64,000 bases of DNA, from the IMG/VR virus record IMGVR_UViG_3300045988_183585, positions 1 to 64,000 of that record, one strand, 5' to 3'. Source of the stretch: a virus. The translations under genes were made by a program, and so were the position numbers. The notes beneath the pieces were generated by a model. It worked only from the letters and a program-made list of their open reading frames with translations, made no database searches and was not told the origin of the DNA. The first letter of the stretch is position 1; every line of letters starts with the position of its first letter. This document shows positions 13,963 through 62,549 of this stretch, piece by piece.

Positions 13963-14652
13963 TTACGTCGCAGGAACTGTGGTGTCAACAGCACCGTCGG
14001 CGTTTTCGATGACCTCGCTCATATCGGCGAGGAAGTAGATGTCATTCTCAGCATCATAGTCGATGTGGGCAACGACTGTTCCCAGCTCTTCGCCAGTAAC
14101 CTTATCGCAGACCTTGATGGTCAGCGTTTCAGAACCGGAGTCGCCATCCACAAGACTGGAGTCCTGCCATGCCACCCCGTAGTTGTCTACGTCGTGATAG
14201 ACGGCATCCACACCCATGATGTCTTCATACCACTGGAAAGCAGCGATGCTGTTGGTATCCATGGCGGGGAAGTCGGCCAGCTTAACAGTGGCGAGTTCCA
14301 TCGGGGTAGAATACTGAGGGAACATCATGCGCTCGGCTTCGATATAGAAAACCGCGCCGTTGGGGTTGGAACAGGTGGGGTTCAGGTAGACGGCGTTGGA
14401 GCCTGCGTCCTTGTCGCCCATGCCCAGCGTGACCTCGTAGCCAGACTGCAGGGTGCAGGTCAGCTTCACGTCGTTGCGGTACTTTCCATCACCGATATAG
14501 CCCTTGGTATCCTCCATACCATCGGGAATAGGTTCGGGATTTTCCAGATTGTACTTCGGGTCGTCAGCGGGATTGTCTCCGTTCTTCTTTCCGCAGCCGG
14601 CGATAGTCAGCAGCATCAGCGCAGCCAGCACCAAGACAAGATACTTTTTCAT
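13963..14652 (-). CDS. lipoprotein
   Basis: Signal peptide MKKYLVLVLAALMLLTIAGC with lipobox. Confidence 0.65.
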   Translation of the reverse strand: MKKYLVLVLAALMLLTIAGCGKKNGDNPADDPKYNLENPEPIPDGMEDTKGYIGDGKYRNDVKLTCTLQSGYEVTLGMGDKDAGSNAVYLNPTCSNPNGAVFYIEAERMMFPQYSTPMELATVKLADFPAMDTNSIAAFQWYEDIMGVDAVYHDVDNYGVAWQDSSLVDGDSGSETLTIKVCDKVTGEELGTVVAHIDYDAENDIYFLADMSEVIENADGAVDTTVPAT

Positions 14653-19397: not shown

Positions 19398-19486
19398 GGA
19401 GAGATGGCTGAGTGGTCGAAAGCACCGGCCTTGAAATCCGGCGATGTCAAAAGCATCCGTGGGTTCGAATCCCACTCTCTCCGCCA
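19398..19486 (+). tRNA. tRNA-Ser (anticodon UGA), long variable arm, encoded CCA
   Basis: GGAGAGA acceptor stem pairs with TCTCTCC. Anticodon loop is CTTGAAA. T-arm is GTGGGTTCGAATCCCAC. 3' end is GCCA. Confidence 0.85.
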
Positions 19487-26611: not shown

Positions 26612-28489
26612 CTATGCCACCTTGCTGATGACCTGCGCCGCATTGGAACGAATCTCGTTCTGCTCGACGGGGTCATTCGTGCATTTGGCGATGAGGCACG
26701 TGTCAATGTAATCTTCCAAATGAGCCATGTATCTGTCGTCACACTGCACGCAGCAGACGAGAGACTCCAGCTCGCAAATAGTGCAGGAACCTTCCGTGAT
26801 TTCCTTGTCGGCGCAGTAGCTCCGAATCTGCTCAAACACGTCGTACAGAGCGTTCAGCGTCTTGTCGTCACGGCTCCAGCCGGTGTTGTACTTGATGCGC
26901 TCCAGCATAGCCTGCTTTTCGATTTCAGTGCTGTCGAAAATCATCCGGCAACGCCGAATAACAGACTGGTCGATGGGGCGGCAGGAAGCATAGCCGACGT
27001 TATCCGTGAATACCACAACGGCATCCTTCTGACGATACGTGAAACCGCCGTCCACCAGCGGAATCATAGCACCCGGCAGGTCGTACTGGTTCAGTGCGAC
27101 CATAACGCCGGAGTCCTTGATACGGCTGATTTCCTGAATCTCGCAGATGTAACCGCGAGAAACGGCTTTCACGAAAGCGGACTCGACCACCTTCACAGGG
27201 GAAGTGCAGCCGGCGCGGGCAACCAACAGCTCAGAATACTTTGCGAAGCATTCCTCAGATGTGATGCCCGTGCCATCCTCGCCCGTCATGGTCGTCCACG
27301 CGGATTCGGGGTCGAAGGAAATCTCATCGAACGTGGGAAGTTCTCCACGCGCCGCATCCACGGGATTGCAGGGGACGAACTCAGAAATCAGGTCCTTCGC
27401 CAGCATATCGGTATGGCAGGTCAGCTCCAGCCGAGGAGTGTGCAGGATGCACGCCAGAACCTTCGTGCCGGTAGACTTACCGTAACCGGTAATGCCGCGC
27501 CACAGGAAGTTGCGGAAGGGTACGCGCATATTGGACGTAGCGACGATTTTGTCGGCCATCTCGATAACCTCAGGCTGAACCTTGAAGTCATCATCGAAGG
27601 TGGGAATCAGCAGTTCCTCGTCGGGCGTCCACGGGTGTGCGTCAGCCCACGCTGCGTATCTGAGCTTGGCAGCCTTCACGGTCATGCCCTTGGTAGAGCT
27701 TGAGGTGCTGTTGGCGGCCATTGTGCCACCGATGATGGTAGGTGTGCCGACAATGATGGTGCCGTTGAAAGCGCCGTTGTTGACCTTCTGCCGCGTCAAC
27801 GTATCCATGTTCCCGTTCTGGACGTTCAGCGGGACTTTGCCCGTCTCACAGCCATAGTAGAACATATCACTGAAGATATACAGATAGTTGAAGGCGGTAG
27901 ATGCTTCCACCATGTGAGCGCCCCAATCAGCGGGGTACTTGGCGCACAGGGCGAGAATCTCGTCACGGACGGTCTTGAGTTCCGAGTTGTCATCCACGAC
28001 AGCCAACTCCGGTGCCTCGTAGTAGAGGGACAGGACTTGGGGTGTCATTGCCAGCATAGCGCCGCTGAGGTCGATGTCGTCAGACTCAGAACCGATAGAC
28101 GGAGTACCCGCCCACTGGCCGGAAGGCATCGTCACGGCGGCACCCAGTTTACCGACAGAAGGCGCATTGGTCTGGAACACCGTTTTATAGGTGAACAGCA
28201 ACGTCTTCACGGTCGTGCCGGTAGAGTTGTCGCGGAACTCAGCGCTCCACAGATTGTCAGAGACCTGCAGCAGAGCATAGTCCTCAACAAAGCCGGGGAT
28301 ACCCAGATATGCCAGAAATGCTCTGGTTGCATAGGCGTGCAGCGTAGATTGCCCCTTCATAGACGGTCTCTGCGGCGCATTCCACTTGGAGAACGTCGTC
28401 GTGCTGCGGTTAGGCATTTGGTTCAGCCCGAAGGGGAGGGTACTGATGTCGAACCCTTTCTTACTTCTGAAGAGTACACAATTTGCCAT
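26612..28489 (-). CDS. MoxR-like AAA+ ATPase with ~330-aa uncharacterised N-terminal domain
   Basis: Walker A GITGYGKST. MoxR-type Walker B / sensor region YICEIQEISRIKDSGVMVALNQYD. The start is the ATG after the conserved cassette RBS. Confidence 0.75.
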   Translation of the reverse strand: MANCVLFRSKKGFDISTLPFGLNQMPNRSTTTFSKWNAPQRPSMKGQSTLHAYATRAFLAYLGIPGFVEDYALLQVSDNLWSAEFRDNSTGTTVKTLLFTYKTVFQTNAPSVGKLGAAVTMPSGQWAGTPSIGSESDDIDLSGAMLAMTPQVLSLYYEAPELAVVDDNSELKTVRDEILALCAKYPADWGAHMVEASTAFNYLYIFSDMFYYGCETGKVPLNVQNGNMDTLTRQKVNNGAFNGTIIVGTPTIIGGTMAANSTSSSTKGMTVKAAKLRYAAWADAHPWTPDEELLIPTFDDDFKVQPEVIEMADKIVATSNMRVPFRNFLWRGITGYGKSTGTKVLACILHTPRLELTCHTDMLAKDLISEFVPCNPVDAARGELPTFDEISFDPESAWTTMTGEDGTGITSEECFAKYSELLVARAGCTSPVKVVESAFVKAVSRGYICEIQEISRIKDSGVMVALNQYDLPGAMIPLVDGGFTYRQKDAVVVFTDNVGYASCRPIDQSVIRRCRMIFDSTEIEKQAMLERIKYNTGWSRDDKTLNALYDVFEQIRSYCADKEITEGSCTICELESLVCCVQCDDRYMAHLEDYIDTCLIAKCTNDPVEQNEIRSNAAQVISKVA

Positions 28490-28694
28490 GGTCTTTTTCT
28501 CCTTTCTCCCTGCCTGTAATAAGGACTTACGGGAATCCAAAAAATGTTATATATAGAAAAAGACAGTCACTTCCCAGAAAAGGGAAGTAACTGTCTTGAT
28601 TCTTTGTGGTGACTTGAAAACGGAGATAATCTCCTTTATAAAAATAGCTTCGTAATTATAATTCTATACTACCACAGTTTGATATTTTGTCAAT
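28490..28694 (-). promoter_or_regulatory. reiterated promoter-leader cassette, copy A
   Basis: Minus strand: TTGACA - 16 nt - TGgTAGTAT, GGAGATTATCTCC palindrome, covarying hairpin plus U-run, conserved CCCGTAAGTCCTTAT..GGGAGAAAGGAG, then ATG. Confidence 0.6.
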
Positions 28695-35639: not shown

Positions 35640-35822
35640 TCAGCAGCCATCAGCAGGGTAGGGCGGGATGGTAACGGACAGGTTGTAGATGTGGTTGCCG
35701 CAGCGAACACACTCGGCATCCTTGTCCCACAACCCACGTTCCTTCATGCCGCGCACGCTGCCCGTACAGTGAATGGACGGGTGCGTGTCTCGCTCATGTT
35801 TGGTGAGCTTCTTGTACTTCAT
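35640..35822 (-). CDS. small Cys-containing protein, first gene of unit B
   Basis: The start directly follows the cassette RBS GAAAGGAGAAACACC. Confidence 0.4.
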   Translation of the reverse strand: MKYKKLTKHERDTHPSIHCTGSVRGMKERGLWDKDAECVRCGNHIYNLSVTIPPYPADGC

Positions 35823-36001
35823 GGTGTTTCTCCTTTCTTTGTTGTCGAAAAATGCAATAAATATATAAAAAAAGACAGCTACCCCAAGATTGGGATAACT
35901 GTCTGAATTTATGTGGTGACTTGGAAAACGGAGATAATCTCCTTTATAAAAATAGCTTCGTAATTATAATTCTATACTACCACAGTTTGATATTTTGTCA
36001 A
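35823..36001 (-). promoter_or_regulatory. reiterated promoter-leader cassette, copy B (lacks the CCCGTAAGTCC segment)
   Basis: Same TTGACA/TAGTAT promoter, palindrome and covarying hairpin as copy A. Confidence 0.6.
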
Positions 36002-40212: not shown

Positions 40213-40656
40213 TCAGGCCAGCAGTGACATACCAAGCCGAACAGTCTTCAGAGGAAACTGGTCGGCATCGAGACGGAATGTTGTGCCGCAGTCGGAGCAA
40301 CGTGCTTCGGGACCGTAGGCACTTCCGTGCTTCGGGCCGAACTTCAGGCTTCCGCAGATGGGACAGGTGGCACAGAGCAGAGTCGCTCCTCGTACCTGAA
40401 TATCCAGAACGCTGGTGCCGGCAGGTGAGTTCGTCCAGCCCGCCAGATAAGCAGGGGAGACGCCCAGCACCTCAGCGAAGCGTTCCAAAGTCTTCAGGGG
40501 GATATTCTCCACTCGCCCAGACTCATACTTGTAGATGGTCTGCGGTGTCACTTCACACCGTTCTGCAAGCTGGCTCTGGGATAGTTCCAGAGACAATCGT
40601 GCATTCTTGATGCGGACAGCAGCAAGCGGCAGGGAAGTGGTCTGAGAAGTGCTCAC
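40213..40656 (-). CDS. XRE-family HTH regulator with C-terminal zinc ribbon
   Basis: LSQSQLAERCEVTPQTIYKYESGR is a helix-turn-helix. C-terminal CPICG..CSDCG. Confidence 0.65.
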   Translation of the reverse strand: MSTSQTTSLPLAAVRIKNARLSLELSQSQLAERCEVTPQTIYKYESGRVENIPLKTLERFAEVLGVSPAYLAGWTNSPAGTSVLDIQVRGATLLCATCPICGSLKFGPKHGSAYGPEARCSDCGTTFRLDADQFPLKTVRLGMSLLA

Positions 40657-41318: not shown

Positions 41319-41882
41319 TCAGACACGGTCGTGTACGCAATCACCATTCCCATCCATCACAGAATCGTGCTGGAGGAAGGTGTCGTGGTACAGTGCCTTG
41401 CCAAACGCCTTGCAGACGGGGCATTCCCAGCTCACCTCCGTACCATCGTTGTAGTCGATTTCACGGTCGCCCTGATATTCGACCTCGGCGCCACACACGG
41501 GGCAGACGTCCTCCTCATCGCCGTTGGGGTGCAGGAATGGGATACGCTTGCCCTGAGGGTCGGTGAAGGGAACGACTATGCGCTGAATAACGGCCAACAG
41601 AACGTCGATGTCGGCGTTTGCCATCATCAGCGCGATGCGTCCGACCTCCAGCTTGAAGTCCTCGGAAAAGATGTTCCCTTGGATAGTCGCCGCGATAGCC
41701 GCAGGATGCGCCATGGCCGCGACGGTATCACGTCCCAGCGAAATGAGGGCGTTGAGTGCCATAATGAACACGGTATGACCGGATTCGGTATAGGCCTTAT
41801 CAAGCTCCTCATAGGCGGTGGCATCGTGATTCTTACGACGCTGTGCGTCCAAACGGGCAATTTCATTAGGATAGTCAGTCAT
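41319..41882 (-). CDS. hypothetical protein with C-terminal zinc ribbon, first gene of unit C
   Basis: CPVCGA..CPVCKA. The start follows the cassette RBS. Confidence 0.55.
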   Translation of the reverse strand: MTDYPNEIARLDAQRRKNHDATAYEELDKAYTESGHTVFIMALNALISLGRDTVAAMAHPAAIAATIQGNIFSEDFKLEVGRIALMMANADIDVLLAVIQRIVVPFTDPQGKRIPFLHPNGDEEDVCPVCGAEVEYQGDREIDYNDGTEVSWECPVCKAFGKALYHDTFLQHDSVMDGNGDCVHDRV

Positions 41883-42082
41883 GAATTTCTCCTTTCTCCC
41901 AGCCTGTTATAAGGACTTACGGGAACACAAATGTATGAAAATATATAAAAAAGACAGCTATCCCCGAAAAAGGATAACTGTCTGAATTTACGTATGGTGA
42001 CTTGGAAAACGGAGATAATCTCCTTTATAAAAATAGCTTCGTAATTATAATTCTATACTACCACAGTTTGATATTTTGTCAA
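41883..42082 (-). promoter_or_regulatory. reiterated promoter-leader cassette, copy C
   Basis: Same elements as copy A. The hairpin is agacagctatcc ccgaaaa aggataactgtct, with compensatory changes relative to other copies. Confidence 0.6.
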
Positions 42083-45315: not shown

Positions 45316-46497
45316 TCAGGCGTGAGTACCGCCCTTGGCCGCGTCACTGATAACCTTCCGTTCTGCCTCCGTGAGCAGCGCATCATCGTCGTTCTCACGA
45401 TGGCCGGCGTTCCAGCTCACACTGGTGGACTCAGTATGCAGGACATTTTCGATGAGGGTGACTGCATTGTCAGCGAAGTTCTCCAAATCTGCATTGGAGA
45501 ATGCGAACGGAACCAGCTTCTCAATGATGACATCGAAGGAACCATCATCATAGGTGAATGTGCCGGCGCCGCTGCCGAAGTTCGCTTTCAGCGCCGTGCG
45601 TACCTCAATCATATCGGCGGGACGGGGGAACGCGGCTCTCAGCCAAAAACGCATCTTGTCCTGTCCGGAAGCCTTGTCGTAGTAGACATAGCACTGGCAC
45701 TTATCGCCGCAGATATCCCGCACGCGGATGTCGGCATTTTCGTCAGAGGACGTGTTTTTGGAGGTGGAATCGGTGCTTTTCAGCTCCACGAATGTGGCAT
45801 CACTCTCCATGTGCTCACTCAGCCACTCGTCGATGTTATCGACCTCGCCGGAGGGAACCTCGACGATGTAGGCAGGACCCACATTGGGGTAGACCTTAAA
45901 GCGCATGGCATCCACATTCCGCCCACCAGCAGGAATCTGTACGGACGCCTGCTTACCGTCGATGGTGCCGAACTGTGCCTCGAACATACTGATATAGCTG
46001 CTGATGTGCTGGAACTGATAGCCGATTTCGGCGGTGTAGTTGGAGGTGAAGCAGTAAAGTGCGTGGCCGATACCCTGACGGGAAATCCACCACGAAATCT
46101 TCTTGTTCACCCCGTTACGCACCGGCGTGAAGTTGTAGAGTCCGTAGGCGAAAGGGATGCCAACATGGACAGCACCACTCTGCGTCTGACCCTTTACGGG
46201 CAGCTCGTCCCACGCATCGCTTGCGTTCACGAAACGTCCCACGAGGACGTCCGCGCTGCACGCTGCGATGAGATTTGCTTCGCAGGGTTCGATACCGACC
46301 AGCTTCGCATACACAGCCTCATCAGCGGCGTTCACCTCATGGAGACCGACAACAGCCGGTACGAATGTACCATCACCGTTGGTAGCTGCCATCATAACAG
46401 CAAAACCATCCTTGGTGATTTTGCCGTTGACGATAACTTCCTCACGGATAGCCTCCATGTTTTCGCCAGTGTGCTCGAAGATAACTTTGGTTTTCAC
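45316..46497 (-). CDS. hypothetical protein, first gene of unit D
   Basis: GTG start 8 nt after the cassette RBS AAAGGAGAAACAA. Confidence 0.6.
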   Translation of the reverse strand: MKTKVIFEHTGENMEAIREEVIVNGKITKDGFAVMMAATNGDGTFVPAVVGLHEVNAADEAVYAKLVGIEPCEANLIAACSADVLVGRFVNASDAWDELPVKGQTQSGAVHVGIPFAYGLYNFTPVRNGVNKKISWWISRQGIGHALYCFTSNYTAEIGYQFQHISSYISMFEAQFGTIDGKQASVQIPAGGRNVDAMRFKVYPNVGPAYIVEVPSGEVDNIDEWLSEHMESDATFVELKSTDSTSKNTSSDENADIRVRDICGDKCQCYVYYDKASGQDKMRFWLRAAFPRPADMIEVRTALKANFGSGAGTFTYDDGSFDVIIEKLVPFAFSNADLENFADNAVTLIENVLHTESTSVSWNAGHRENDDDALLTEAERKVISDAAKGGTHA

Positions 46498-46698
46498 TTG
46501 TTTCTCCTTTCTCCCTGCCTGTAATAAGGACTTACGGGAACTCAAAATGTATGAAAATATATAAAAAAGACAGCTACCCCAAGATTGGGATAACTGTCTG
46601 AATTTACGTATGGTGACTTGGAAAACGGAGATAATCTCCTTTATAAAAATAGCTTCGTAATTATAATTCTATACTACCACAGTTTGATATTTTGTCAA
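46498..46698 (-). promoter_or_regulatory. reiterated promoter-leader cassette, copy D
   Basis: Near-identical to copies B and H. Confidence 0.6.
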
Positions 46699-46767: not shown

Positions 46768-48789
46768 TTAACGCGCTTCAAGCAGCTTCTCAATGTCAAA
46801 ATCCTTGATGATGTACTCATCAGGATTTGCGACGACTGCATCGTACTCCTCACGGCTTTGGAAGCTGTCAATGACTTTCTTTTCAGCGTTACTCAAAGCA
46901 TCATACGGCTTGGTGCCGTAGTCAGCAGGCAACCAGCCGCGATTCATTCCGACGAAGATATTGAGCCGGTCGATGAGCAGCTTGGCGGAGTCCTTGAACT
47001 TCAGCTTCAGAATGCCCTTCTTATAGAAGGAACCAGTAAAGAACGTGAATGCGATGCTCTTACCGACGCTTTTTCCGCTCGTGACATTATCGTTGACAGC
47101 AGTCATCGGGTCAATAGAGTTAGGTGTATTCTTGCCACCGTTGAGAAGATACAGAGCGCGTTCCATATCATTCACCACATATGCGGCTTTATCCTGATTG
47201 AAGTCGTCTCTATAGCGGTCGAAGACGTAGGAATACATAGAGAGCTTCGGGAATGCCAAACGGAACCCAGCGGTCTGTTTCTTGTCGAAAGAGCAATATT
47301 TCTGGGTGTTCTCACTTGATAGCGTGTCCGCATCGTAATCGTACACATCATACCGTTGCCTACTTCCCATGCTCCCCAGCCTATCGAACAGGTTCAGCAG
47401 GGAAGTGGTGCAACCTCTACGCAGCTCCCGCCGAATATCCTCCATTACAGTCCTCACAGTGTAGTCGTTGAGGTCGTAATCCTTCAATTCAGCACGACGA
47501 CGCTTGTAGTCTTCTTCCATGTTGGCAGGCATCAGACCGATGTTCGCGGCTTTGTGGATGAAAGTGTCCCAGTAACTTGCGCGGATACTTTCCAAGCACG
47601 CCATTCGAAGTTCAACGCCGGAATCCCTCCAAGGATGGTCGTCCACGGCCAGTTTGACATAGGGCTGGTCGTAACGCTCAGAGCCGCTCATTATAAAGGG
47701 CTTAACCTCTTCGTAGGAGCCAATGAAGGAGTTGCAAATACGAGCCTTGAGCTCAAACTCCTCAATGATGTCCTGCGGAAACTTCTTCCGCCAATCGGGA
47801 AGGAACGGCTTCTGTACCTCGTAGTCGCGCAAAGTCGTAAGATTCTCACTCAACACATCCGCCTCATTTCTGCTGTTTGCGTTCGACGGCTTGACATTGA
47901 CATGGATGATGACCCACTCAGGGGCCGTCCGTCTCGTTCTGTCACGCTTGAACTCCTTTTCCACATAGAACATAGAGGCATTGATTCTCTTCGTTTCCAG
48001 CATATAAGACAGCGAAGTGTCTGCAGCCAGTGTGGAGTAGGGAAGGATGGCGAGAAGCTGACCACCGCATTTCCGCAGCATGGTCAAAGATTTGCCAATC
48101 CATCGCGCAGCGAAAGCAGGGGAGACCGCCGATGTGTGGGCGAACATGATGAGGGGATAGGGTTTCAGTGTGTTGAACTTTGCAAAGTCGTCGTAGACGA
48201 CACGGATGCCTTCTTCCTTCAGCGTTTCCGCCACACAAACATCTTCTACCACGGTATCCAAATACTTTTCACCGTAATATGCGCTTTCGTGCTGCCAGAC
48301 CTTGTTCTTGTTTCTGTACCAGCCGGCAAAGCGGCGGAAGCACTCGTGAAGCTGCAGCTCACTCATGTCCCCGCAAATGGGGTTCAGAATGTCGCCATCG
48401 CGCACGGCAGACCAGTCCACCATGCGGAGTGCCTTACCGCAGACGTAAGGGGTGAGAGTTTCAGGTGCGGTGGCGTACCGCTGCCTGACCTTGGGCGCGG
48501 ACTTCTCGTAAGTGCCCACGCCGTCGCGTTCGAACCAAGCTCTGAACTTCTCCTTCGCTCCTGCGATGGTAGAAGATTGGCTGCCATAGATGTACTCGCC
48601 GCGAGTCCAATAATCAGTGCCGCAATGGGCGAACCGATATGCCATATAGTTCTTGGTGTCATCGCGGAAGTTATCTTTGTTCTCAAGGATGTACCCCACA
48701 TTCATACCCTTGTAGTAGATGTCCGTTACGGTATCTTTGTATCCGGAATTCTTTCCGGGGGCTAAAAAGGACAGATGAATTCTACTCAT
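46768..48789 (-). CDS. large hypothetical protein (possible degenerate SAM-MTase motif I, DILNPICGDMSEL)
   Basis: 674 aa. Start at MSRIHLS, directly after a partial cassette RBS. No NPPY-type motif was found, so the MTase assignment is weak. Confidence 0.55.
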   Translation of the reverse strand: MSRIHLSFLAPGKNSGYKDTVTDIYYKGMNVGYILENKDNFRDDTKNYMAYRFAHCGTDYWTRGEYIYGSQSSTIAGAKEKFRAWFERDGVGTYEKSAPKVRQRYATAPETLTPYVCGKALRMVDWSAVRDGDILNPICGDMSELQLHECFRRFAGWYRNKNKVWQHESAYYGEKYLDTVVEDVCVAETLKEEGIRVVYDDFAKFNTLKPYPLIMFAHTSAVSPAFAARWIGKSLTMLRKCGGQLLAILPYSTLAADTSLSYMLETKRINASMFYVEKEFKRDRTRRTAPEWVIIHVNVKPSNANSRNEADVLSENLTTLRDYEVQKPFLPDWRKKFPQDIIEEFELKARICNSFIGSYEEVKPFIMSGSERYDQPYVKLAVDDHPWRDSGVELRMACLESIRASYWDTFIHKAANIGLMPANMEEDYKRRRAELKDYDLNDYTVRTVMEDIRRELRRGCTTSLLNLFDRLGSMGSRQRYDVYDYDADTLSSENTQKYCSFDKKQTAGFRLAFPKLSMYSYVFDRYRDDFNQDKAAYVVNDMERALYLLNGGKNTPNSIDPMTAVNDNVTSGKSVGKSIAFTFFTGSFYKKGILKLKFKDSAKLLIDRLNIFVGMNRGWLPADYGTKPYDALSNAEKKVIDSFQSREEYDAVVANPDEYIIKDFDIEKLLEAR

Positions 48790-48835
48790 TATTTTCTCCT
48801 TTCTCCCAGCCTTTAAGGTCTTATGGGAACAAAAT
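48790..48835 (-). promoter_or_regulatory. partial cassette copy E (RBS-proximal segment only, no promoter or hairpins)
   Basis: CCCATAAGACCTTAAAGGCTGGGAGAAAGGAGAAA on the minus strand, within an operon. Confidence 0.4.
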
Positions 48836-48855
48836 GGTGACATTGAAAGTTACCT

Positions 48856-51135: not shown

Positions 51136-51340
51136 ATAACAAAATCGTCTCCTTTCCCCCTGCCTCAGATAAGGACTTATGGGAACATAAAATATATAAA
51201 AAATATAAAAAAAGACAGCCACCCAAGATTGGGGTAACTGTCTGAATTTACGTATGGTGACTTGAAACGGAGATACTCTCCTTTATAATAATAGCTTCGT
51301 AATTATAATTCTATACTACCACAGTTTGATATTTTGTCAA
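51136..51340 (-). promoter_or_regulatory. reiterated promoter-leader cassette, copy F
   Basis: Slightly diverged copy. The palindrome is GGAGAtACTCTCC. Confidence 0.55.
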
Positions 51341-51366
51341 TGATTTCAGGCAAAAGAAAAGCGCCC

Positions 51367-51390
51367 GTAGGGGCGCTTTTCGGTCGTAAG
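51367..51390 (-). terminator. intrinsic terminator ending unit G
   Basis: aaagcgccc gtag gggcgcttt. Confidence 0.6.
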
Positions 51391-51400
51391 GTCTCTCCTT

Positions 51401-52489
51401 TCAGGCGGGAAATCTGTGTGCGCTGATAATGCGGAGCAGCTCCCAGCCAAAGGTCTTTTTGTGAGCCTTTTCCTTCCCCTCATCATCGTCAAGACAAATG
51501 GCCGTGAAGACGTGCTTTCGTGCCTTGGGGTGGATGGCGGTGATGACATAGCTGCAGCCGCAGAAGTCGAACATCTCACGGTAGACGATGTCGATGCCTT
51601 CCTCGTCGAGTCGGCGTTGTATGACCTGCTTGTTCTTGTAGAACATAGCCTCCTCTTCCTTGCCTGACTCAATATGCTGGTCAGCAGCCATGCTGTCCTC
51701 AATATCACGCAGAATCTCTTCCACGCGGTTGAAAGGCCATTCAACGGTCTTGCCGGGTTCCTTGCCGTCCATCTGGCGGAGGGATACTCCGATGGGGAGG
51801 CTATTTTTGTCGATGCCCTCGATACAGTAGGTCGTTTCAATATAAGAGAACAACCTGCCGTAATCGGAATACTTCAGTTTATAGACCGGCTGCATGATAG
51901 CTTTATCCGCTTTGTGAAGCCTGAAGTGTTCCTCCCTCTGCCGGCAGAAGGCATCCCAGATGATTTTGGAATCAGGAATATCCTTGTCGGCATAGTAGGA
52001 TGTCCGATAGAAGGCAAAGGAAAACTTTGCAACATAGGTTTTCTCGACTCGCGGCAAAGAATCAGGCTTTTCATTTGAGTAGACGCTCTTCGACATACTG
52101 GCCCAGTCCGGCTGAATACGTGGTACAGTACCCAGCACCTGTTTCGGTGCAAATACACGAGCACTGTGCTTCGCCGCAGCCTGCTTCGCAGCAGCCATGA
52201 CATCATTATACATATCCGTCCAACAGAGCTTCATCCCACGCTTATTATCTGCGAAGAGCATATTGTTGAGGCAGATTGCAAGCGATACATGGGTGATGGT
52301 TGCGGCTCCGCCGGATACGTAGCAAATGTTGATGCGGCGGTTGCCACAGCGAGCCTCGCCAAAGGGGTCCTTGCAACAGTAATCCTTGTCCTTCAGCGCT
52401 TCATAGACGTAGTTGCATAGTGTCGTACAGAGGGATGAACCCTCTGTGCGTCCTATGTCGGCTGCGGTGTCAATGGTTTTCAAATCCAT
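51401..52489 (-). CDS. P-family paralog 4
   Basis: YCCKDPFG, IPDSKIIWDAFC, EEAMFYKNK, YREMF, FGWELL. Confidence 0.65.
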   Translation of the reverse strand: MDLKTIDTAADIGRTEGSSLCTTLCNYVYEALKDKDYCCKDPFGEARCGNRRINICYVSGGAATITHVSLAICLNNMLFADNKRGMKLCWTDMYNDVMAAAKQAAAKHSARVFAPKQVLGTVPRIQPDWASMSKSVYSNEKPDSLPRVEKTYVAKFSFAFYRTSYYADKDIPDSKIIWDAFCRQREEHFRLHKADKAIMQPVYKLKYSDYGRLFSYIETTYCIEGIDKNSLPIGVSLRQMDGKEPGKTVEWPFNRVEEILRDIEDSMAADQHIESGKEEEAMFYKNKQVIQRRLDEEGIDIVYREMFDFCGCSYVITAIHPKARKHVFTAICLDDDEGKEKAHKKTFGWELLRIISAHRFPA

Positions 52490-52510
52490 AGCTTTCTCCT
52501 TTCTTTGTTT

Positions 52511-53548
52511 TTAAGCTCCCCGACCGCTGCGGTCGGCGATGATTCTGTCGATGACCTCTTTATACATGAACATGACCTTATCACCGACAGCTTTGCCTTC
52601 CTCGTCCTCAACACAAATAGCGGTGAAGACATAGAGACTTTGTGCATTCGGCGTGATAGCGGTCAAGGCGTAGGTACGCTTGGCGTACTGGAACATTTCA
52701 CGATACATGAGGTCTACACCGTCACGGGCGAGGGCAGCTTTAATGCAGTCCTTGCCTTCGTAAAAATCAGCTTCCTCGTCCTTCGCAGCTTTCAGCTTTC
52801 GTGCGGGTATGTCGGCATCATCATCAAAAAGAGGCCTCCGAAGATTTGTCAACGGAACCACGATGATGCCTTCGTCTCCTGTACTTCCCGCAGGCTGCAG
52901 TCGCACGTCCAAATAACTGAACTCGTCCGCAAAGCCAACAATACGATACATGGCACCCTCATAGAGAAACTCACGCTCATAATCGGTTGCTTTTAGCGGA
53001 TAGAAAGGCATATGAGGAGGGCCGCTGGTGCGTCCTTTTTCATCTTCAATATCCTCTTGCAATCGCAGGCATCGGGCATCCCAGACGATTTTCTCATCAG
53101 GTACGTTGGGGTTGTTGTGGTACGGCGTCCGGATGAACTCGATACCGAACACCGCAAACCTGAATCTCCGTCCAGCGCCATTGCGCTTTGTTCCGAACGA
53201 CGGCTTTTGTACGAAAATTCGCGCCTTATACGTCTCCGCCACATACCACAAAGCCGCCTTAATATCATCGCGCATCTCACCAACACATGACTCAACGTAC
53301 TTGTGATTGTCTGCGTCTACGATGAGGTTGAGTGTGACTTCTGTGATATTAGCTTTTTCGTACGATACCTTGCACGGGTGGGGAAGGTCGGGGTCATTTC
53401 CGTAGCGTTCTTTTCCGAAGGGGTCTTTACAGCAATAGGCCTGTCCCTTCACATTGAACTCAACAACCTGTTTGATGAACTCACAGAGCCCATTCTTGCT
53501 GGTGATTGTTCCCGCACCAACGGTGGTGTCAAGTGTGTGCAGGTTCAT
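52511..53548 (-). CDS. P-family paralog 3
   Basis: YCCKDPFGKERYG, VPDEKIVWDARC, EEADFYEGK, YREMF. Confidence 0.65.
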   Translation of the reverse strand: MNLHTLDTTVGAGTITSKNGLCEFIKQVVEFNVKGQAYCCKDPFGKERYGNDPDLPHPCKVSYEKANITEVTLNLIVDADNHKYVESCVGEMRDDIKAALWYVAETYKARIFVQKPSFGTKRNGAGRRFRFAVFGIEFIRTPYHNNPNVPDEKIVWDARCLRLQEDIEDEKGRTSGPPHMPFYPLKATDYEREFLYEGAMYRIVGFADEFSYLDVRLQPAGSTGDEGIIVVPLTNLRRPLFDDDADIPARKLKAAKDEEADFYEGKDCIKAALARDGVDLMYREMFQYAKRTYALTAITPNAQSLYVFTAICVEDEEGKAVGDKVMFMYKEVIDRIIADRSGRGA

Positions 53549-53565
53549 AGCTTTTCTCCTTTCTT

Positions 53566-54585
53566 TCAGCGTTTTCCTCCATCGCGTTCGGCACGAATCG
53601 CCTCAATGACATCTCCAAACGAGAAGAACAGGACATCATCAAAGGTTTCACCGGATTCATCCACACGGACAGCACCGAAGATATCCTTTACTTTGGTGGG
53701 TATGATGCCGACCAGTGCGTAGGTCAAGCCATCAAGCTCAAACATCTCACGATACATCACGTCCACGCCAACACGGTCCAGTAGAGCTTGGATGTGCTTC
53801 TTATTTTCATAAAAAGCAGTTTCCGTCTCCCTTGAAACACTGACATTCTGCATTTCTGCAAGGTACAGGGCGTGTTCAACGAGGGACAAAGATACCTCCA
53901 TGGTATCGCCTTTATCTTGACCGTCTACACCTTGCACGAGTACCTCGTCCATGCTGTTTTCACCCATTCCGATGATACGATACAGGGAGCCTCCGAGAAG
54001 GAACACTCGCCCGAAATCGGAATTTTGAATGGTGTAATCAGTTTTCTGGCCGGCAGCAAATCGCGTATCCCGAATCTTACCGCAGCGTTTACACCAAATG
54101 TCTCTGTTGGCATCCCAGATGATTTTCTCATCAGGAATGCCGGTATCCTTGGCGTAGGGCGTTGATATGATGTAGACGTATAATGCGGCTGATTGGAATA
54201 AGGCGCCTGAACGAGCACCCATTGCCGCAGAGCAAAACGGCTGCTTCTTGATGATAGCTCGTGCCGAGTGCTTGCTTGCAATAGGTTTTATTGCAGCGCT
54301 TACGTCCCTCAGAATGGCCGCAGCCACGTCACGAGGCAGCGGGTTTATTCCGTAGCCGCCATCCAACGCAATGTTGATGACCAACTTTAAGATGTTGTAC
54401 TCCTTACCGAAGACATAACACATATCCCCAGCATCAGCACCGTAGCGCCTTTTACCGAACGGGTCTTGTCCACAATAGGTCTTGTTCCGAAGAGTGTATT
54501 CAAGCCCTGTGCGAATGTCTGTCAACAGCAAATCGGAGTCGATTTGTTCAGCACCGTATGCGGTGTCCAGAGCATCTAAATCCAT
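53566..54585 (-). CDS. P-family paralog 2
   Basis: YCGQDPFGKRRYG, IPDEKIIWDA, ETAFYENK, YREMF. Confidence 0.65.
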   Translation of the reverse strand: MDLDALDTAYGAEQIDSDLLLTDIRTGLEYTLRNKTYCGQDPFGKRRYGADAGDMCYVFGKEYNILKLVINIALDGGYGINPLPRDVAAAILRDVSAAIKPIASKHSARAIIKKQPFCSAAMGARSGALFQSAALYVYIISTPYAKDTGIPDEKIIWDANRDIWCKRCGKIRDTRFAAGQKTDYTIQNSDFGRVFLLGGSLYRIIGMGENSMDEVLVQGVDGQDKGDTMEVSLSLVEHALYLAEMQNVSVSRETETAFYENKKHIQALLDRVGVDVMYREMFELDGLTYALVGIIPTKVKDIFGAVRVDESGETFDDVLFFSFGDVIEAIRAERDGGKR

Positions 54586-54697
54586 AGCTTTCTCCTTTCT
54601 TTTTTGCTTTCAGCAGGTCAGGCAGCGACACACACTGCTGCACCGCCGTCCGAACCGCGCAGGACAGGGGAGAGGCAGTACCCCTCCCGTGCCTGAG

Positions 54698-55882
54698 TCA
54701 ATCAGGGTCCCTGCATTCCGCCATGAGTTCGATGAGGTCCCACCCGAAAAGAACACGGTGTCCATATTCGGGGGAGTCTGCATCACAGCAGACAGCACCA
54801 AAGATGTTTGTCCGTGCATCCGGAAAGATTTCGGTAAGCACAAAACTTGTACCGAGCGTATCGAAAATCTCTCTGTAGGTTACATCGAGCTCTTTCCACG
54901 CTTCAAGCATTTCAGCCCAAGACGACATACTCGTCTGCCGTGAGTGGGCCATGCGTTTTGTGAGACTTATTTTGTTCTTGTAAAACAAAGCCTCCTCATC
55001 TTTAGCCTTCAGCACCGTCAGCACTGTTTTGTCTTCGAAGTCATCTTCGTAAAGTGCAAGTTCAATGTCCTTAGCCCTCACATCTACCTTTTTGCCAGCG
55101 TTTTTCCCCTTGACGTATTCGAGTACGACGGAGGAATTGGGCTTCTCATGGTTGATGCTGAGAATCCGGACAATGGGGCTGCGAGGTTTCCCCGGCTTGA
55201 GGGGGAATTCACGACCGAAGTCCGCTGCACACAGCTCGTGCTTCGGAAGCGACTCTTTGCTTACTCTCCGGTCAACCATTGCCTTTCGACAGTAGGCATC
55301 CCAAAAGATTTTCTCGTCTGGAATCTCCGGATTGTCGAAATACGTCGAGTGGGCGAAGGTGAAATCAAAGTGAAAGAGGGGAAATGCAGCTCCATTAAGG
55401 GTGAACCGTCGTTTCTCTCTGCCTTTCACAAAGCAACGTGCTGACCACTGTTCAGCGGCTACCTTTACGGCCCGTTCCAACTTTTCCTGCAGTTCGTCTA
55501 TAAACGTCGGCTGCGGGGCCCCCATCTGTGACAGCTTTTCGAGAAGCGGTGACAGCTTTTCGAGAAGCAAGATGTTCACAGAATAGTGTGTGAGATAGAA
55601 GCATTCATCGTCATCGGAGACTTTGATGTCTGCCAGCGCATCAGGAAAATCACTTCCGTAGGATACATAAGTCTCTGTTGTCCGGCAGAATGTAGTTGGG
55701 TCAATACCCAAACGCTTCACTCCAAAGGGGTCTCCCTCACAGTCAGGTTCATTGCTGAACGCCTTTTGGACGACATCAATGATTGTGTCACGGATATTCT
55801 CCATGATGATAGCATTGGCGTGATACTTTTCGTGCTTGAGGATAGGTCTTGGAACCATCGTGTCAATGGCACGCAAATCCAT
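54698..55882 (-). CDS. P-family paralog 1, first gene of unit G
   Basis: DCEGDPFGVKRLG, IPDEKIFWDAYC, EEALFYKNK, YREIF, FGWDLI. Confidence 0.65.
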   Translation of the reverse strand: MDLRAIDTMVPRPILKHEKYHANAIIMENIRDTIIDVVQKAFSNEPDCEGDPFGVKRLGIDPTTFCRTTETYVSYGSDFPDALADIKVSDDDECFYLTHYSVNILLLEKLSPLLEKLSQMGAPQPTFIDELQEKLERAVKVAAEQWSARCFVKGREKRRFTLNGAAFPLFHFDFTFAHSTYFDNPEIPDEKIFWDAYCRKAMVDRRVSKESLPKHELCAADFGREFPLKPGKPRSPIVRILSINHEKPNSSVVLEYVKGKNAGKKVDVRAKDIELALYEDDFEDKTVLTVLKAKDEEALFYKNKISLTKRMAHSRQTSMSSWAEMLEAWKELDVTYREIFDTLGTSFVLTEIFPDARTNIFGAVCCDADSPEYGHRVLFGWDLIELMAECRDPD

Positions 55883-56082
55883 GTTTTTCTCCTTTCTCCC
55901 CGCCTACAAAGAGGACTTATGGGAATCCCAAATGTATGATAATATATAAAAAAAAGACAGCCATCCCAAGATTGGGATAACTGTCTGAATTTATGTGGTG
56001 ACTTGAAAACGGAGATAATCTCCTTTATAAAAATAGCTTCGTAATTATACTTCTATACTACCACAAACAGATACTTTGTCAA
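55883..56082 (-). promoter_or_regulatory. reiterated promoter-leader cassette, copy G
   Basis: Same architecture as copy A. The -35 is TTGACA and the -10 region reads tggtagtatagaagtataat. Confidence 0.6.
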
Positions 56083-58641: not shown

Positions 58642-59271
58642 TCACACCGCCTTTCGTTCCACCCAGACATCGCCCCGCTTTGCACACTCGTAGTGGTAGG
58701 GGCAGTCGTAGTGGGAATCGCAGCCTTCATCAACGAAGGTCTGGCAGGTGGCGCAGTCCAGATTGTGATGCAGCAGCCGCCGGATAACATCCCGTGCATT
58801 AACGGTTTCGACCGCAAGGTAGGAAAAGGCTCTCGCCTTGACGCTTGCGTCGTGCTCGTCCGTATAGTAGAGAGAAGACGCACAGAGAACCTTTGCTCCG
58901 AACACATGGCGGCACTCCTCATTGGAGAGCATCTCGCCGACGAACGGGAAAAGCCCGCGTCTGGCTCTGAGCTGATTGCTGACGAAAGCGTGTGTGTTCT
59001 TCGCCAGCTCCACGCCCTCATGAGCCTCCTCCAGTGTGTCGAAGGACAACGCACACACATCCACCAAAGAGCTTTCGCCGACAGGGGAGTGGTTCACATA
59101 GAGCATCACGTACTTCTTGCTGGGCAGAGTCGCAGTTCTTGCTGCATCCTCGCCCTTGAGACACACATAACGCGCCACGTTGTCGTTCCAAACGAACTGC
59201 TTACAGGAAGCACAGGTATTCTCCGGCTTGTCACATCCGGATTTTGTCTCAACGACCTTGATGTTTGCCAT
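58642..59271 (-). CDS. Cys-rich hypothetical protein, first gene of unit H
   Basis: Start at MANIKVV after the cassette RBS. Confidence 0.55.
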   Translation of the reverse strand: MANIKVVETKSGCDKPENTCASCKQFVWNDNVARYVCLKGEDAARTATLPSKKYVMLYVNHSPVGESSLVDVCALSFDTLEEAHEGVELAKNTHAFVSNQLRARRGLFPFVGEMLSNEECRHVFGAKVLCASSLYYTDEHDASVKARAFSYLAVETVNARDVIRRLLHHNLDCATCQTFVDEGCDSHYDCPYHYECAKRGDVWVERKAV

Positions 59272-59472
59272 AGTTTTCTCCTTTCTCCCAGCCTTTTGTA
59301 AGGACTTACGGGAACACAAAAATGTATGAAAATATATAAAAAAAGACAGCCACCCCAAGATTGGGATAACTGTCTGAATTTATGTGGTGACTTGGAAAAC
59401 GGAGATAATCTCCTTTATAAAAATAGCTTCGTAATTATAATTCTATACTACCACAGTTTGATATTTTGTCAA
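59272..59472 (-). promoter_or_regulatory. reiterated promoter-leader cassette, copy H
   Basis: -35 tgtcaa at ~59467-59472 (plus coordinates). -10 atacta at ~59445-59450. Palindrome at 59401-59413. Hairpin at 59345-59376 with an A-run at 59338-59344 (a U-run in the RNA). Confidence 0.6.
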
Positions 59473-59498
59473 CTATATACACAAACTAAAAAAAAGAA

Positions 59499-59524
59499 AA
59501 AGAGCCGCCGAAGCGACTCTTTTT
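59499..59524 (-). terminator. intrinsic terminator ending unit I
   Basis: agagccgc cgaa gcgactct plus a T-run. Confidence 0.55.
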
Positions 59525-59536
59525 CCGTTGCAAAGT

Positions 59537-60533: not shown

Positions 60534-60803
60534 TCACATCACACCATCGTCAACGACATCAATAAAACCGTATTTCAGGCTGTCGTTAATGCCGTGAACG
60601 CTGTGCCCGTTATCGAAATCCTTGCGGAGCTGAGAAGCAGAGGTCTTGGCATCGCCTTCGCCATACTCGAACATCTCAGTCTCGACGCAATTCGACACGA
60701 TTTTCTTCAGCTTTGTGTGAGAGGTCGTTGCAGCGACCAAGCGCATGGAGTCTCTTGACTTCCATGCATCGCAGGAAAACACGATGTAAATTGGCTTATT
60801 CAC
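60534..60803 (-). CDS. hypothetical protein
   Basis: 89-aa ORF. Confidence 0.5.
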   Translation of the reverse strand: MNKPIYIVFSCDAWKSRDSMRLVAATTSHTKLKKIVSNCVETEMFEYGEGDAKTSASQLRKDFDNGHSVHGINDSLKYGFIDVVDDGVM

Positions 60804-61383
60804 AGTCCTTGCTCCTTTCTTTCCGGCCTTTACGGTCGATTTCAGCCACAGGATAGGGCGATGCCTTTCTCATGTTGCTGTCCATGATTCTCATTACATG
60901 AATGAGCATCTCGGAATAAGCACGATGCATCGTCTCGTAGCGGGCACGCCATGTATTATCATCATTGTCGTTGACGCGGGAACTCAACCCCATGCTGTAA
61001 TACAGCGCAGAGTCGATATCCACCATCTCCGCATCTGTCAGGTGGCAGATGTATGCTCCCAGCTCGTTCGTGGAGACTGCCATCGGCTGCTCACACAACG
61101 CCGTGCTGGGGCGGCTGGTGCTGGTGATGAGTACATGAGATGGAAGCTGCATCTTCGGGGAAGACGTGGTAAACACGACCTCCACGACGCTGCTGTACCG
61201 GTTCAGGTCGTCAGCGGATACGACGATAGCGGGACGATGGCCTCTGATAACAGAGCTGTTAGAGGGCTGGCCGTCCTTGTCTCTGAACTGACTTCCTCCC
61301 GGTGCCCAAGGAGAATAAATCTCAATCTCTTTGGCATTGACCCAGAACACATCACCCCTGCGGATGATGCCTTTTCTACCCAT
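60796..61383 (-). CDS. MazF/PemK-like toxin domain protein with ~70-aa C-terminal extension
   Basis: RRGDVFWVN..GSQ..RPAIVVSADDLN..VVEVVFTTS fits the PemK/MazF core. Confidence 0.5.
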   Translation of the reverse strand: MGRKGIIRRGDVFWVNAKEIEIYSPWAPGGSQFRDKDGQPSNSSVIRGHRPAIVVSADDLNRYSSVVEVVFTTSSPKMQLPSHVLITSTSRPSTALCEQPMAVSTNELGAYICHLTDAEMVDIDSALYYSMGLSSRVNDNDDNTWRARYETMHRAYSEMLIHVMRIMDSNMRKASPYPVAEIDRKGRKERSKDCE

Positions 61384-62105: not shown

Positions 62106-62368
62106 TGCGCTTCACCTCCGCGATACGAAGGTCTCCGCTTGGACCTGAACGGCGGCATTATCGGTGCGTTGTAGCTGGTCAGCTCACCAGTCAACTTCAC
62201 GGGCACACAGGCGAGCAGACCTCGCTGCTGTCTGTACTGATGCGCCAGATTGTTGCGGGCCTGACGCTCCGATACGGCCATGGTCGTACCACCCCACTTA
62301 TTCGTGGAGATGTCGTCATATACACGGATAGGGCCGAGGTAGCGATAAACCTTTTTTGGCTGTGCCAT
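62102..62368 (-). CDS. hypothetical basic protein, first gene of unit I
   Basis: Start at MAQPKKV after the cassette RBS. Confidence 0.45.
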   Translation of the reverse strand: MAQPKKVYRYLGPIRVYDDISTNKWGGTTMAVSERQARNNLAHQYRQQRGLLACVPVKLTGELTSYNAPIMPPFRSKRRPSYRGGEAQ

Positions 62369-62549
62369 AGTTCATTTCTCCTTTCTTTTTCTTGTAAAAT
62401 GTATGAAAATATATAAAAAAAGACAGCCATCCCGAAAATGGGATAACTGTCTTGATTACGTATGGTGACTTGGAAACGGAGATAATCTCCTTTATAAAAA
62501 TAGCTTCGTAATTATACTTCTATACTACCACAGTTTGATATTTTGTCAA
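62369..62549 (-). promoter_or_regulatory. reiterated promoter-leader cassette, copy I (short form like copy B)
   Basis: Hairpin agacagttatcccattttcgggatggctgtct, with compensatory changes. Confidence 0.6.

Follow-up and report, generated by a model that had tools for sequence, protein, structure and literature searches.

The stretch analysed here, called the window throughout, comprises the 64,000 nucleotides (nt) at positions 1 to 64,000 of the virus record IMGVR_UViG_3300045988_183585 in IMG/VR; it matches a 173-kb contig (ERZ28576386 scaffold_46, sample SAMEA4545318) and has relatives of 174–200 kb; another sample with the element is SAMN29183628 (ERZ28637690 scaffold_3). Co-directional gene cassettes of 3–8 kb are each started in the window by one copy of a repeated module of ~190 nt with 32–35% G+C, and the copy that starts the cassette c59 contains, at 59338–59376, a hairpin followed by a run of U residues, which is the subject of this work. 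A preliminary description had singled out this hairpin as a terminator-like structure and a candidate attenuator. The meaningful strand at this position is the minus strand: the plus-strand letters are AAAAAAAGACAGCCACCCCAAGATTGGGATAACTGTCTG, and from 59376 to 59338 the minus strand reads 5'-cAGACAGUUAUCCCAAUCUUGGGGUGGCUGUCUUUUUUU-3', its RNA being 5'-cAGACAGUUAUCCCAAUCUUGGGGUGGCUGUC-UUUUUUU. The leader of c59, with its three hairpins (HP1, HP2 and HP3), is made up as follows, where bp stands for base pairs and dG for the folding free energy:

59495–59526, minus strand: terminator of the preceding cassette or operon (stem, UUCG loop and U8), just 5' of the c59 promoter and distinct from HP2
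59445–59472, minus strand: c59 promoter, with the -35 element TTGACA at 59472–59467, a 16-nt spacer and the extended -10 element TGgTAGTAT, its -10 at 59450–59445
59434–59439, minus strand: second, perfect TATAAT, at about -1 to +5 of the predicted start, within the palindrome AATTATAATT
59401–59413, minus strand: HP1, a 5-bp hairpin GGAGA-UUA-UCUCC followed by GUUUUC, which covaries across leader types
59386–59393, minus strand: conserved, single-stranded box (C)AAGUCACC, 10–13 nt 5' of the terminator hairpin
59345–59374, minus strand: HP2, GACAGUUAUCCC(A)-loop-(U)GGGGUGGCUGUC, 13 bp including three G.U pairs, dG ~-19.5 kcal/mol
59338–59344, minus strand: U7 tract, immediately 3' of HP2
59269–59313, minus strand: HP3 (UCCC...GGGA, 59313–59286) adjoining the Shine-Dalgarno sequence GAAAGGAGAAAA, then the ATG (59271–59269) of the first c59 gene

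The box also occurs in the variants CAGGUCACC, CAAGGCACC and UAAGACACC. Between the U7 tract of c59 and HP3 lies an A/U-rich stretch, HP2 being located ~50–75 nt 5' of the ribosome-binding site, and the leader as a whole has a z-score of -3.8.

A search for direct repeats, nhmmer and an unfiltered covariance model agreed on exactly eight full copies of the module in the window, all on the minus strand (28.5, 35.9, 42.0, 46.6, 51.3, 56.0, 59.4 and 62.5 kb; eight in 34 kb), aligned in register and each on the coding strand of its cassette. The covariance model gave these copies 95–106 bits and the next best match 18.8 bits, with the antisense sides of the hairpins at 12–17 bits against 95–106 for the sense sides. 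Both nine and eight copies had been counted in the preliminary description; eight is the number that stands, since no ninth full copy was found in the window by nhmmer or the unfiltered covariance model, where only a partial module with HP3 and a Shine-Dalgarno sequence occurs in addition, at 48836–48786. The hairpins of the other seven copies lie at the following positions:

62415–62451, minus strand: HP2 of c62 with U7 (module 62366–62549)
55948–55985, minus strand: HP2 of c55 with U8 (module 55880–56082)
51207–51242, minus strand: HP2 of c51 with U7 (module 51140–51340); 11-bp stem in which U9->C pairs with G
46563–46598, minus strand: HP2 of c46 with U6 (module 46495–46698)
41947–41982, minus strand: HP2 of c41 with U6 (module 41880–42082)
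35867–35903, minus strand: HP2 of c35 with U7 (module 35820–36001, without HP3)
28557–28595, minus strand: HP2 of c28 with U5 (module 28487–28693); 14-bp stem with two extra pairs (CUUCCC/GGGAAG)

In all eight copies HP2 begins 63–66 nt and ends 93–98 nt after the predicted start site, the hairpin and its U tract spanning about +64 to +100 of the module, which bears out the earlier placement at 60–90 nt downstream of the -10. The stems measure 11–14 bp, or 12–15 bp if the flanking A-U pairs are counted, instead of the 13–15 bp first given, and have a dG of -15 to -24 kcal/mol. Five to eight U residues directly follow the last pair in 8/8 copies, as well as in the leaders recovered from relatives; the tract of "seven or more" U that had been announced was slightly overstated, three of the eight copies having fewer (five in c28, six in c41 and c46). 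In a consensus scan these hairpins scored level with operon-end terminators and were among the best terminator-like sites of the region. HP2 and its U tract have the stem-loop and the U run of an intrinsic (Rho-independent) terminator.

The promoter upstream of HP2 has the form TTGACA-16-TGnTAGTAT, with a spacer that differs between copies and two invariant hexamers, and a perfect TATAAT is found at about -1 to +5 in every copy of the window, the start site being a prediction. Between HP2 and the start codon no strong sigma-A promoter was found in the leaders of the window, where the sole candidate, TTGGGR-17-TATATT, reached 9/12 and had its -35 in the variable loop, with no conservation. Since HP2 stands, as had been claimed for every cassette, between the consensus promoter and the first gene, and no credible conserved promoter follows, the expression of the cassettes must pass this hairpin. 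Moreover, most copies have a terminator of their own upstream, not conserved in sequence, so that the preceding operon does not depend on HP2 for its end.

Public collections were scanned with leader patterns that left the hairpin unconstrained, and with one pattern that fixed only the box and the 5' arm. The relatives thus obtained are contigs of 47–200 kb from human gut metagenomes, the largest of which have 9–12 copies each; among the recovered relatives nhmmer counted 138 full copies, with 61 distinct cores. The leaders fall into four types:

Type A (the window): HP1 GGAGA/UCUCC; HP2 GACAGUUAUCCC/GGGRURGCUGUC
Type B: HP1 GGCGC/GCGCC, GGUGC/GCACC or GGCGC/GUGCC; HP2 like type A, or GACAAUUAUCCC/GGGGUAAUUGUC, or GACAGCUAUCCC/GGGAUAGCUGUC
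Type C: HP1 GGAGC/GCUCC; HP2 with a wholly different stem, AGAGACCAUCAUC/GAUGAUGGUCUCU, and U5
Type D: HP1 GGAGA/UCUCU; HP2 like type A

The TATAAT at +1 is kept in types C and D, whose scan pattern omitted it, and its invariance in types A–C is partly forced by the scan pattern. This sequence could serve as a sigma-dependent pause element. The palindrome in which it lies in c59, AATTATAATT (59432–59441, with equivalents in other copies), is its own reverse complement and thereby forms on the plus strand an antisense promoter-like site, TTTATA-16-TATAAT, which faces the bidirectional upstream terminator.

All 102 stem pairs of the window are standard ones (102/102), 17 of them G.U. The preliminary description had held the differences between stems to be always compensatory: pairing is indeed always kept, but within the window the differences are mostly one-sided exchanges of U-A and U.G at stem positions 6, 7 and 9, where position 9 alone runs through U-A, U.G and C-G and c28 adds two pairs, so that two-sided changes become clear only with the relatives. 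In a structure-anchored alignment of 26 distinct leaders with 19 pairs, 451/451 cells pair (100%), as compared with 91.3 ± 0.8% in shuffles, none of which reached the observed value (0/500), and with 44–60% when the partners were slid by 1–3 columns; the arms were drawn from the base so as to maximise pairing, which makes the pairing next to the loop (two pairs) partly a matter of construction, but not that of the core pairs. Nine of the 19 pairs show two-sided changes, as HP1 position 3 (A-U 20, C-G 5, U-A 1), HP1 position 5 (A-U 18, C-G 8) and, in HP2, an exchange of G-C (22 leaders) for A-U (4); HP1 has no mispairs in the 26 leaders. In addition, 49 of the 451 cells (~11%) are G.U, which the other strand would show as A.C mismatches, and all that the opposite DNA strand forms is a broken stem: the structure exists only in the sense RNA. 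The HP2 loop is free to vary in both sequence and length and, in type C, the entire stem sequence is replaced while a hairpin and U-run are kept at the same place. HP1 and HP2 are both selected as structures of the sense transcript, and the original view of the hairpin as a selected RNA structure is borne out.

The cassettes vary between relatives, and one of these (L051) lacks the four-paralogue cassette c55. At the junction (L051 ~14400–14560, compared with window 51140–56082) its leader joins the promoter spacer of c55 to a downstream part like that of c51, a hybrid which implies that leaders recombine with each other and that the 190-nt repeats act as homologous-recombination substrates by which cassettes are removed or exchanged. 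Type C leaders head a primase-containing operon beside a Rep-like gene, on elements that also carry type A. Type B stands directly after a 105-aa (amino acids) Xre-family gene, 98–100% identical in 16 loci, beside chromosomal suf genes (for example L096 4967–5445, QRFC01000098.1, and 15 others); the genes after this leader differ between loci, with at least five gene sets, and the position may mark an integration hotspot or the border of an element that has integrated. A single recovered leader (L061 4129–4183, at a contig end) is without hairpin and U-run, its promoter and HP1 being joined straight to a flavodoxin-like gene; it may have arisen by natural recombination or as a chimera of the assembly. 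Searches of the leader by blastn against the INPHARED phages and the PLSDB plasmids gave no match, a 397-aa protein conserved in the family gave nothing by tblastn against the same two collections, and among the GTDB species-representative genomes the leader had only a chance promoter match in Paenibacillus.

We tentatively favour the reading that HP2 is an intrinsic-terminator attenuator common to a regulon of variable operons, bypassed by a trans-acting factor. By default most transcripts would stop at HP2 as a leader RNA of ~95–100 nt, the cassette genes would be expressed only by read-through of this hairpin, and the most likely agent to set the read-through seems to be a trans-acting factor of the element or of its host, because the nascent leader has no alternative fold that pre-empts the terminator. 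The factor may act on the leader RNA, that is on HP1 with its U-run and on the AAGUCACC box, in the manner of N-nut or LoaP, or else, as Q does, on the RNA polymerase close to the promoter, via the TATAAT at +1; the invariant region from -15 to +16, with its TATAAT at about +1, has the geometry of the sigma-dependent pause of lambda Q. Since the same module heads 8–12 operons per element, one factor would switch a whole set of variable accessory operons at once, and the cassettes are probably establishment or anti-defence operons of a conjugative plasmid-like element. Conditional read-through appears likelier than a fixed leak, because the consensus promoter and the strong terminator are retained essentially everywhere and upstream terminators proper to the copies are common. 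Termination at HP2, its conditionality and the nature of the factor are what we infer, the factor being the weakest step.

Several points weigh against the attenuator. The promoter is of a strong sigma-A type by its match to the consensus, from which its recognition is assumed; the release of transcripts at HP2, the efficiency of termination and the read-through are predictions. No antiterminator of the NusG/KOW, Q, N-like, ANTAR or CAT kind was found in the window, in ~20 kb beyond it or in the flanks of the other copies, by Pfam and PHROG searches of the open reading frames of the window and of ~213 open-reading-frame clusters from the fetched loci (the best 25 of 55–78 families per bulk scan); the regulators met there were an Xre-type protein of 147 aa, an HTH/sigma-r4-like protein of 235 aa and, elsewhere in the family, two sigma-factor-like proteins. 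A strong promoter with a leaky terminator could be a mere fixed-ratio device, and gene conversion, instead of a binding partner, could in part be what keeps the 5' leaders of paralogues nearly identical, since recombination between leaders is seen.

Other explanations place the signal elsewhere. An attenuator with an alternative structure (riboswitch, T-box, leader-peptide, antisense-RNA or zipper), in which an antiterminator helix competes with HP2, would be at home in a leader terminator of a Firmicute-like element, where such devices are common, and zipper-type attenuators head the conjugation operons of many Gram-positive plasmids (PMC13401043); it is nonetheless hardly credible here. At gathering thresholds Rfam 15 found only tRNA in the whole window, and at E<=10 nothing credible, or near any gathering score, in the leader; HP1 and HP2 are the sole helices in the RNAalifold consensus of 53 leaders, and the pre-terminator folds of types A, B and C leave the 5' arm of HP2 free, so that we rejected a conserved antiterminator helix, or a zipper such as that reported for pLS20 (PMC13401043). 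The complementarity of the HP1 and HP2 3' arms seen in type A is missing in types B and C, and conservation of the antisense promoter-like site does not extend to type C. A leader peptide was likewise dismissed, because the Shine-Dalgarno-like AAGGAGA in HP1 has no AUG, GUG or UUG behind it at a usable distance and is replaced in type B. At the level of DNA, the inverted repeat of HP2 might be bound by a protein, as an operator or a roadblock, or might shuffle cassettes as a site of recombination or attachment: its 5' arm contains TTATCCC, the heptamer that serves the p576 repressor Reg576 as operator (PMC6294495), the leaders are the places where cassettes come and go, and type B loci diverge just 3' of the module. 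This is very unlikely, as the G.U pairs (11%) are mismatches both in duplex symmetry and on the other strand, a U/T tract always follows the hairpin, type C has a hairpin and T-run of entirely different sequence, the loop is free to vary in length as well as sequence, and homologous recombination between the 190-nt repeats accounts for the cassette loss observed. The resemblance to a Reg576-type operator we regard as coincidental: there is no dual TTATCCC, and the heptamer, with eight occurrences on the minus strand (five in hairpins) and six on the plus strand of the window for ~3–4.5 expected per strand, is not enriched outside the hairpins. A single-stranded-DNA promoter of the Frpo/ssi kind was rejected as well, the fold of the single-stranded template leaving the -35 and -10 outside a long duplex.

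Two further readings accept a terminator at HP2 and dispense with the factor. The promoter and HP2 might define a multicopy small RNA (sRNA) gene, present in 8–12 copies per element and acting in trans, with the cassettes living on basal read-through; its product would more likely measure ~95–100 nt than the ~80 nt first proposed, and its seed could be AAGUCACC or the invariant 5' end UACGAAGCUAU. With its promoter, its strong terminator and a conserved box that is unpaired, the module does have the anatomy of an sRNA gene, the leader from +1 to HP2 is almost invariant among paralogues and elements, beyond what a plain spacer would need, and the type B module follows an Xre gene and heads unrelated genes in different loci. 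We consider it quite unlikely, because each copy is followed, always within the same short interval, by a ribosome-binding site and an operon that lacks a credible promoter itself, which makes read-through functionally required anyway; target complementarity was not identified, no Rfam family matched, and the stem and loop of HP1 differ between types A and C that co-occur in one element, which fits a structural role in cis better than a single trans-acting RNA. Alternatively, HP2 might be a constitutive damper or insulator, a fixed leaky terminator that tempers the strong promoter and blocks transcription from upstream with no factor at all, the leader being conserved by concerted evolution and by roles of HP1 and HP3 in the stability or processing of the mRNA. 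Neither an alternative structure nor a factor was found; leaders recombine, as the L051 hybrid and the cassette loss attest, which would homogenise them; EGeRS1 of pLS20 likewise stops read-through from upstream (PMC8708921), and stem-loops in the ardC leader of p576 raise expression, probably through transcript stability (PMC6294495). This explanation is unlikely, albeit less so than an sRNA: a weaker promoter would suffice, yet the consensus -35, the extended -10 and the strong terminator are kept across four types in practically every leader recovered, 138 full copies with a single exception at a contig end; a dedicated upstream terminator is already there at most copies; and gene conversion alone does not account for the conservation of HP1 and the box, with covariation, between types without common flanks.

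Among known systems, the PR'-qut-tR' unit of phage lambda has a strong constitutive promoter, a -10-like element at the start of the transcript and a strong terminator before the genes, giving by default a short RNA (6S RNA), and the Q factor, which binds between -35 and -10 and is loaded near the promoter, lets the polymerase through. The module resembles it in its strong promoter, its -10-like element near the predicted +1 and its terminator 3' of the promoter and before the regulated genes. It differs in that lambdoid phages have one such unit and the elements here 8–12, in that the -35/-10 interval, where Q binds, is here the variable part, and in that no Q-family protein was found among the families listed for the scanned parts of an element that looks like a plasmid instead of a phage; the label of Q-type antitermination used in the preliminary description is not supported, the perfect TATAAT at about -1 to +5 being the only Q-like feature and no Q-like protein occurring in the annotated parts. 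In lambda N/nut a dedicated protein binds a hairpin of the nascent leader and modifies the elongation complex. A protein-bound leader hairpin is also found in the LoaP-dependent leaders of antibiotic operons in Bacillus and Clostridia (PMC12691694). With both the module has in common a short conserved linear element and a small 5-bp hairpin in the nascent leader, 5' of terminators; however, the HP1 loops have 3–4 variable nucleotides (UUA, GUA, UUUA, AAAA, AGAA, AUUA), as opposed to the GNRA-like, purine-rich pentaloop of boxB, and no boxA consensus, arginine-rich N-like protein or NusG paralogue was identified here. Processivity is not needed in the cassettes, which in the consensus scan have no strong internal terminators. 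RNA-based processive antitermination is known from HK022 put, B. subtilis EAR, Tn916 canT and pLS20 conAn2 (PMC11658703, PMC8191782), which are likewise cis-acting leader RNAs 5' of terminators, in mobile elements of Gram-positive bacteria or phages. These RNAs are larger (two stem-loops in ~65–70 nt for put, ~120 nt for EAR, 340–450 nt for canT, as against ~60 nt with one 5-bp hairpin here), and they act constitutively once transcribed; placed right in front of its sole terminator, an antiterminator that is always active would leave that terminator without a purpose. The earlier comparison with put is not supported, HP1 being one hairpin of 5 bp instead of the two larger, adjacent stem-loops of put RNA, which act on the polymerase without a protein. 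The PeSL (promoter-early stem-loop) cassettes of T4-type phages, attributed to Arbiol et al. 2010, are reportedly variable cassettes flanked by a module of promoter and stem-loop that is a substrate for recombination. A repeated promoter and stem-loop module would serve cassette shuffling on both sides; in PeSL the stem-loop, as the terminator of the previous unit, precedes the promoter, whereas the conserved terminator here follows it, inside the leader.

The closest functional analogue is formed by the establishment gene regulatory sequences of Bacillus conjugative plasmids, EGeRS1 of pLS20 and EGeRS2 of p576. There, a conserved regulatory sequence is repeated before 4–5 clustered and variable establishment operons (PMC8708921, PMC6294495); EGeRS2 is a strong, repressor-controlled sigma-A promoter with an extended -10 that gives zygotic induction (PMC6294495), and EGeRS1 is a long structured region which blocks read-through in one orientation only (PMC8708921). 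In both cases a repeated sequence precedes co-directional operons that vary between related plasmids, 4–5 there and 8–12 here, and the genes are mostly of unknown function, some of them anti-restriction genes (PMC8708921, PMC6294495). As with EGeRS2, the module is repeated before several clustered variable operons, eight in the window and 9–12 per related contig, in a family that has a relaxase. By contrast, EGeRS2 has its repressor at dual TTATCCCnnTTATCCC by the promoter and has no leader terminator, whereas no dual motif occurs here and a terminator is present in every leader; EGeRS1 measures 420–750 bp, is GC-rich and promoterless and has many inverted repeats, as compared with ~190 nt, a consensus promoter and two simple hairpins here; and blastn found no match in PLSDB, whose content of pLS20 and p576 was not checked. 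The module differs from EGeRS in sequence, size and mechanism, namely a promoter with a leader terminator, the layout and the probable role being common to both, and it fails to show the defining features of put, nut, riboswitch-type attenuators, Frpo, EGeRS1 and EGeRS2.

Downstream of the terminator, HP3 adjoins the Shine-Dalgarno sequence GAAAGGAGAAA in 6/8 leaders of the window, and its structure is kept with unrelated sequences in other leader types (L062, L065, L113), for example as UCCGC-CUUCGU-GCGGA; the lone HP3/Shine-Dalgarno module (48786–48836) heads an internal gene at 46768–48843. HP3 may be a 5' stabiliser of the mRNA, a processing site or a translation-initiation module, and recalls the start-associated sequences of some mycobacteriophages. 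Between terminator and HP3, five of the eight leaders have the sequence UACAU (59322–59326 in c59 and the same place in c41, c46, c55 and c62), the cleavage motif of B. subtilis EndoA/MazF. The cassette c62 encodes a PemK/MazF-like toxin (60796–61383, Pfam E=7e-17), and its link with UACAU could be coincidence.

Most cassette products have no Pfam or PHROG match; those with matches include PemK/MazF-like, YopX, DUF4942, RRXRR, DUF4314, Fic, VWA with AAA, and Xre-type HTH proteins. The cassette c55 (51401–55882, minus strand) consists of four tandem paralogues of 362, 345, 339 and 394 aa, all without a Pfam or PHROG match. In c41 two zinc-ribbon proteins (41319–41882 and 40213–40656), one of them of the Xre-type HTH kind, match the restriction-alleviation protein Lar weakly and below threshold, which hints faintly that anti-restriction functions may be present in some cassettes. 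Other loci of the window and family encode an adhesin with TQ, SpaA and thioester domains, a VWA tip pilin, TopoIII, a MobA/VirD2 relaxase, FtsK/SpoIIIE-like proteins, a primase, a DarB-like anti-restriction protein, a DNA methyltransferase, integrases, an IS605 TnpB and two sigma-factor-like proteins. The surface protein is very large (window 12–4685, plus strand), with thioester and SpaA domains and five T-Q ester-bond domains in DNA repeats of 276–399 nt, and a VWA tip-pilin-like protein is found in relatives (L073 6750–9674); together they represent adhesion or pilus functions typical of Gram-positive conjugative elements. Where the plus-strand gene block and the last cassette converge there is a tRNA-Ser(UGA), at 19398–19486 on the plus strand. 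Capsid, tail, terminase and packaging families were absent among the best 25 of the 55–78 families of each bulk Pfam/PHROG scan, and a regular-expression search for the His triad of the relaxase gave nothing useful. IMG/VR lists the relatives as viral; a phage origin was rejected, since no structural or packaging families are among those listed and conjugation-type genes are present. Judging from its genes, the element looks like a large conjugative plasmid, or resembles an integrative and conjugative element, of ~170–200 kb, because relaxase, pilin or adhesin, TopoIII and anti-restriction-like genes are present.

A bolder proposal goes beyond the attenuator itself: the module may be the cis half of a new antitermination regulon of uncultured gut Firmicute megaplasmids, in which one element-encoded factor of a new family opens 8–12 terminators. 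We regard this as possible, if on balance doubtful. Its target would then be the HP1/AAGUCACC RNA or else a complex that has stalled close to the promoter, at the +1 TATAAT; the terminators would open together, for instance on entry into a new host, and so switch on an entire island of variable operons for establishment or anti-defence, and this would be a third mechanism of establishment regulons, beside the repressor-based zygotic induction of p576 and the single-stranded-DNA promoters of F-like plasmids. If the attenuator is real, every operon of a co-regulated set would be marked by one leader motif of ~100 nt. The set consists of accessory genes, most of them uncharacterised, and the large mobile elements that carry it are frequent in metagenomes of the human gut and missing from the reference collections of plasmids and phages that were searched. 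The covariance model with its two covarying helices could be used to delimit such regulons and to pick candidate establishment or anti-defence genes in metagenomes, and the leader terminator offers a reporter read-through assay for the controlling factor, possibly a new kind of antiterminator. The idea of an establishment regulon would thus extend from Bacillus plasmids to Clostridia-like elements of the gut, by a different mechanism.

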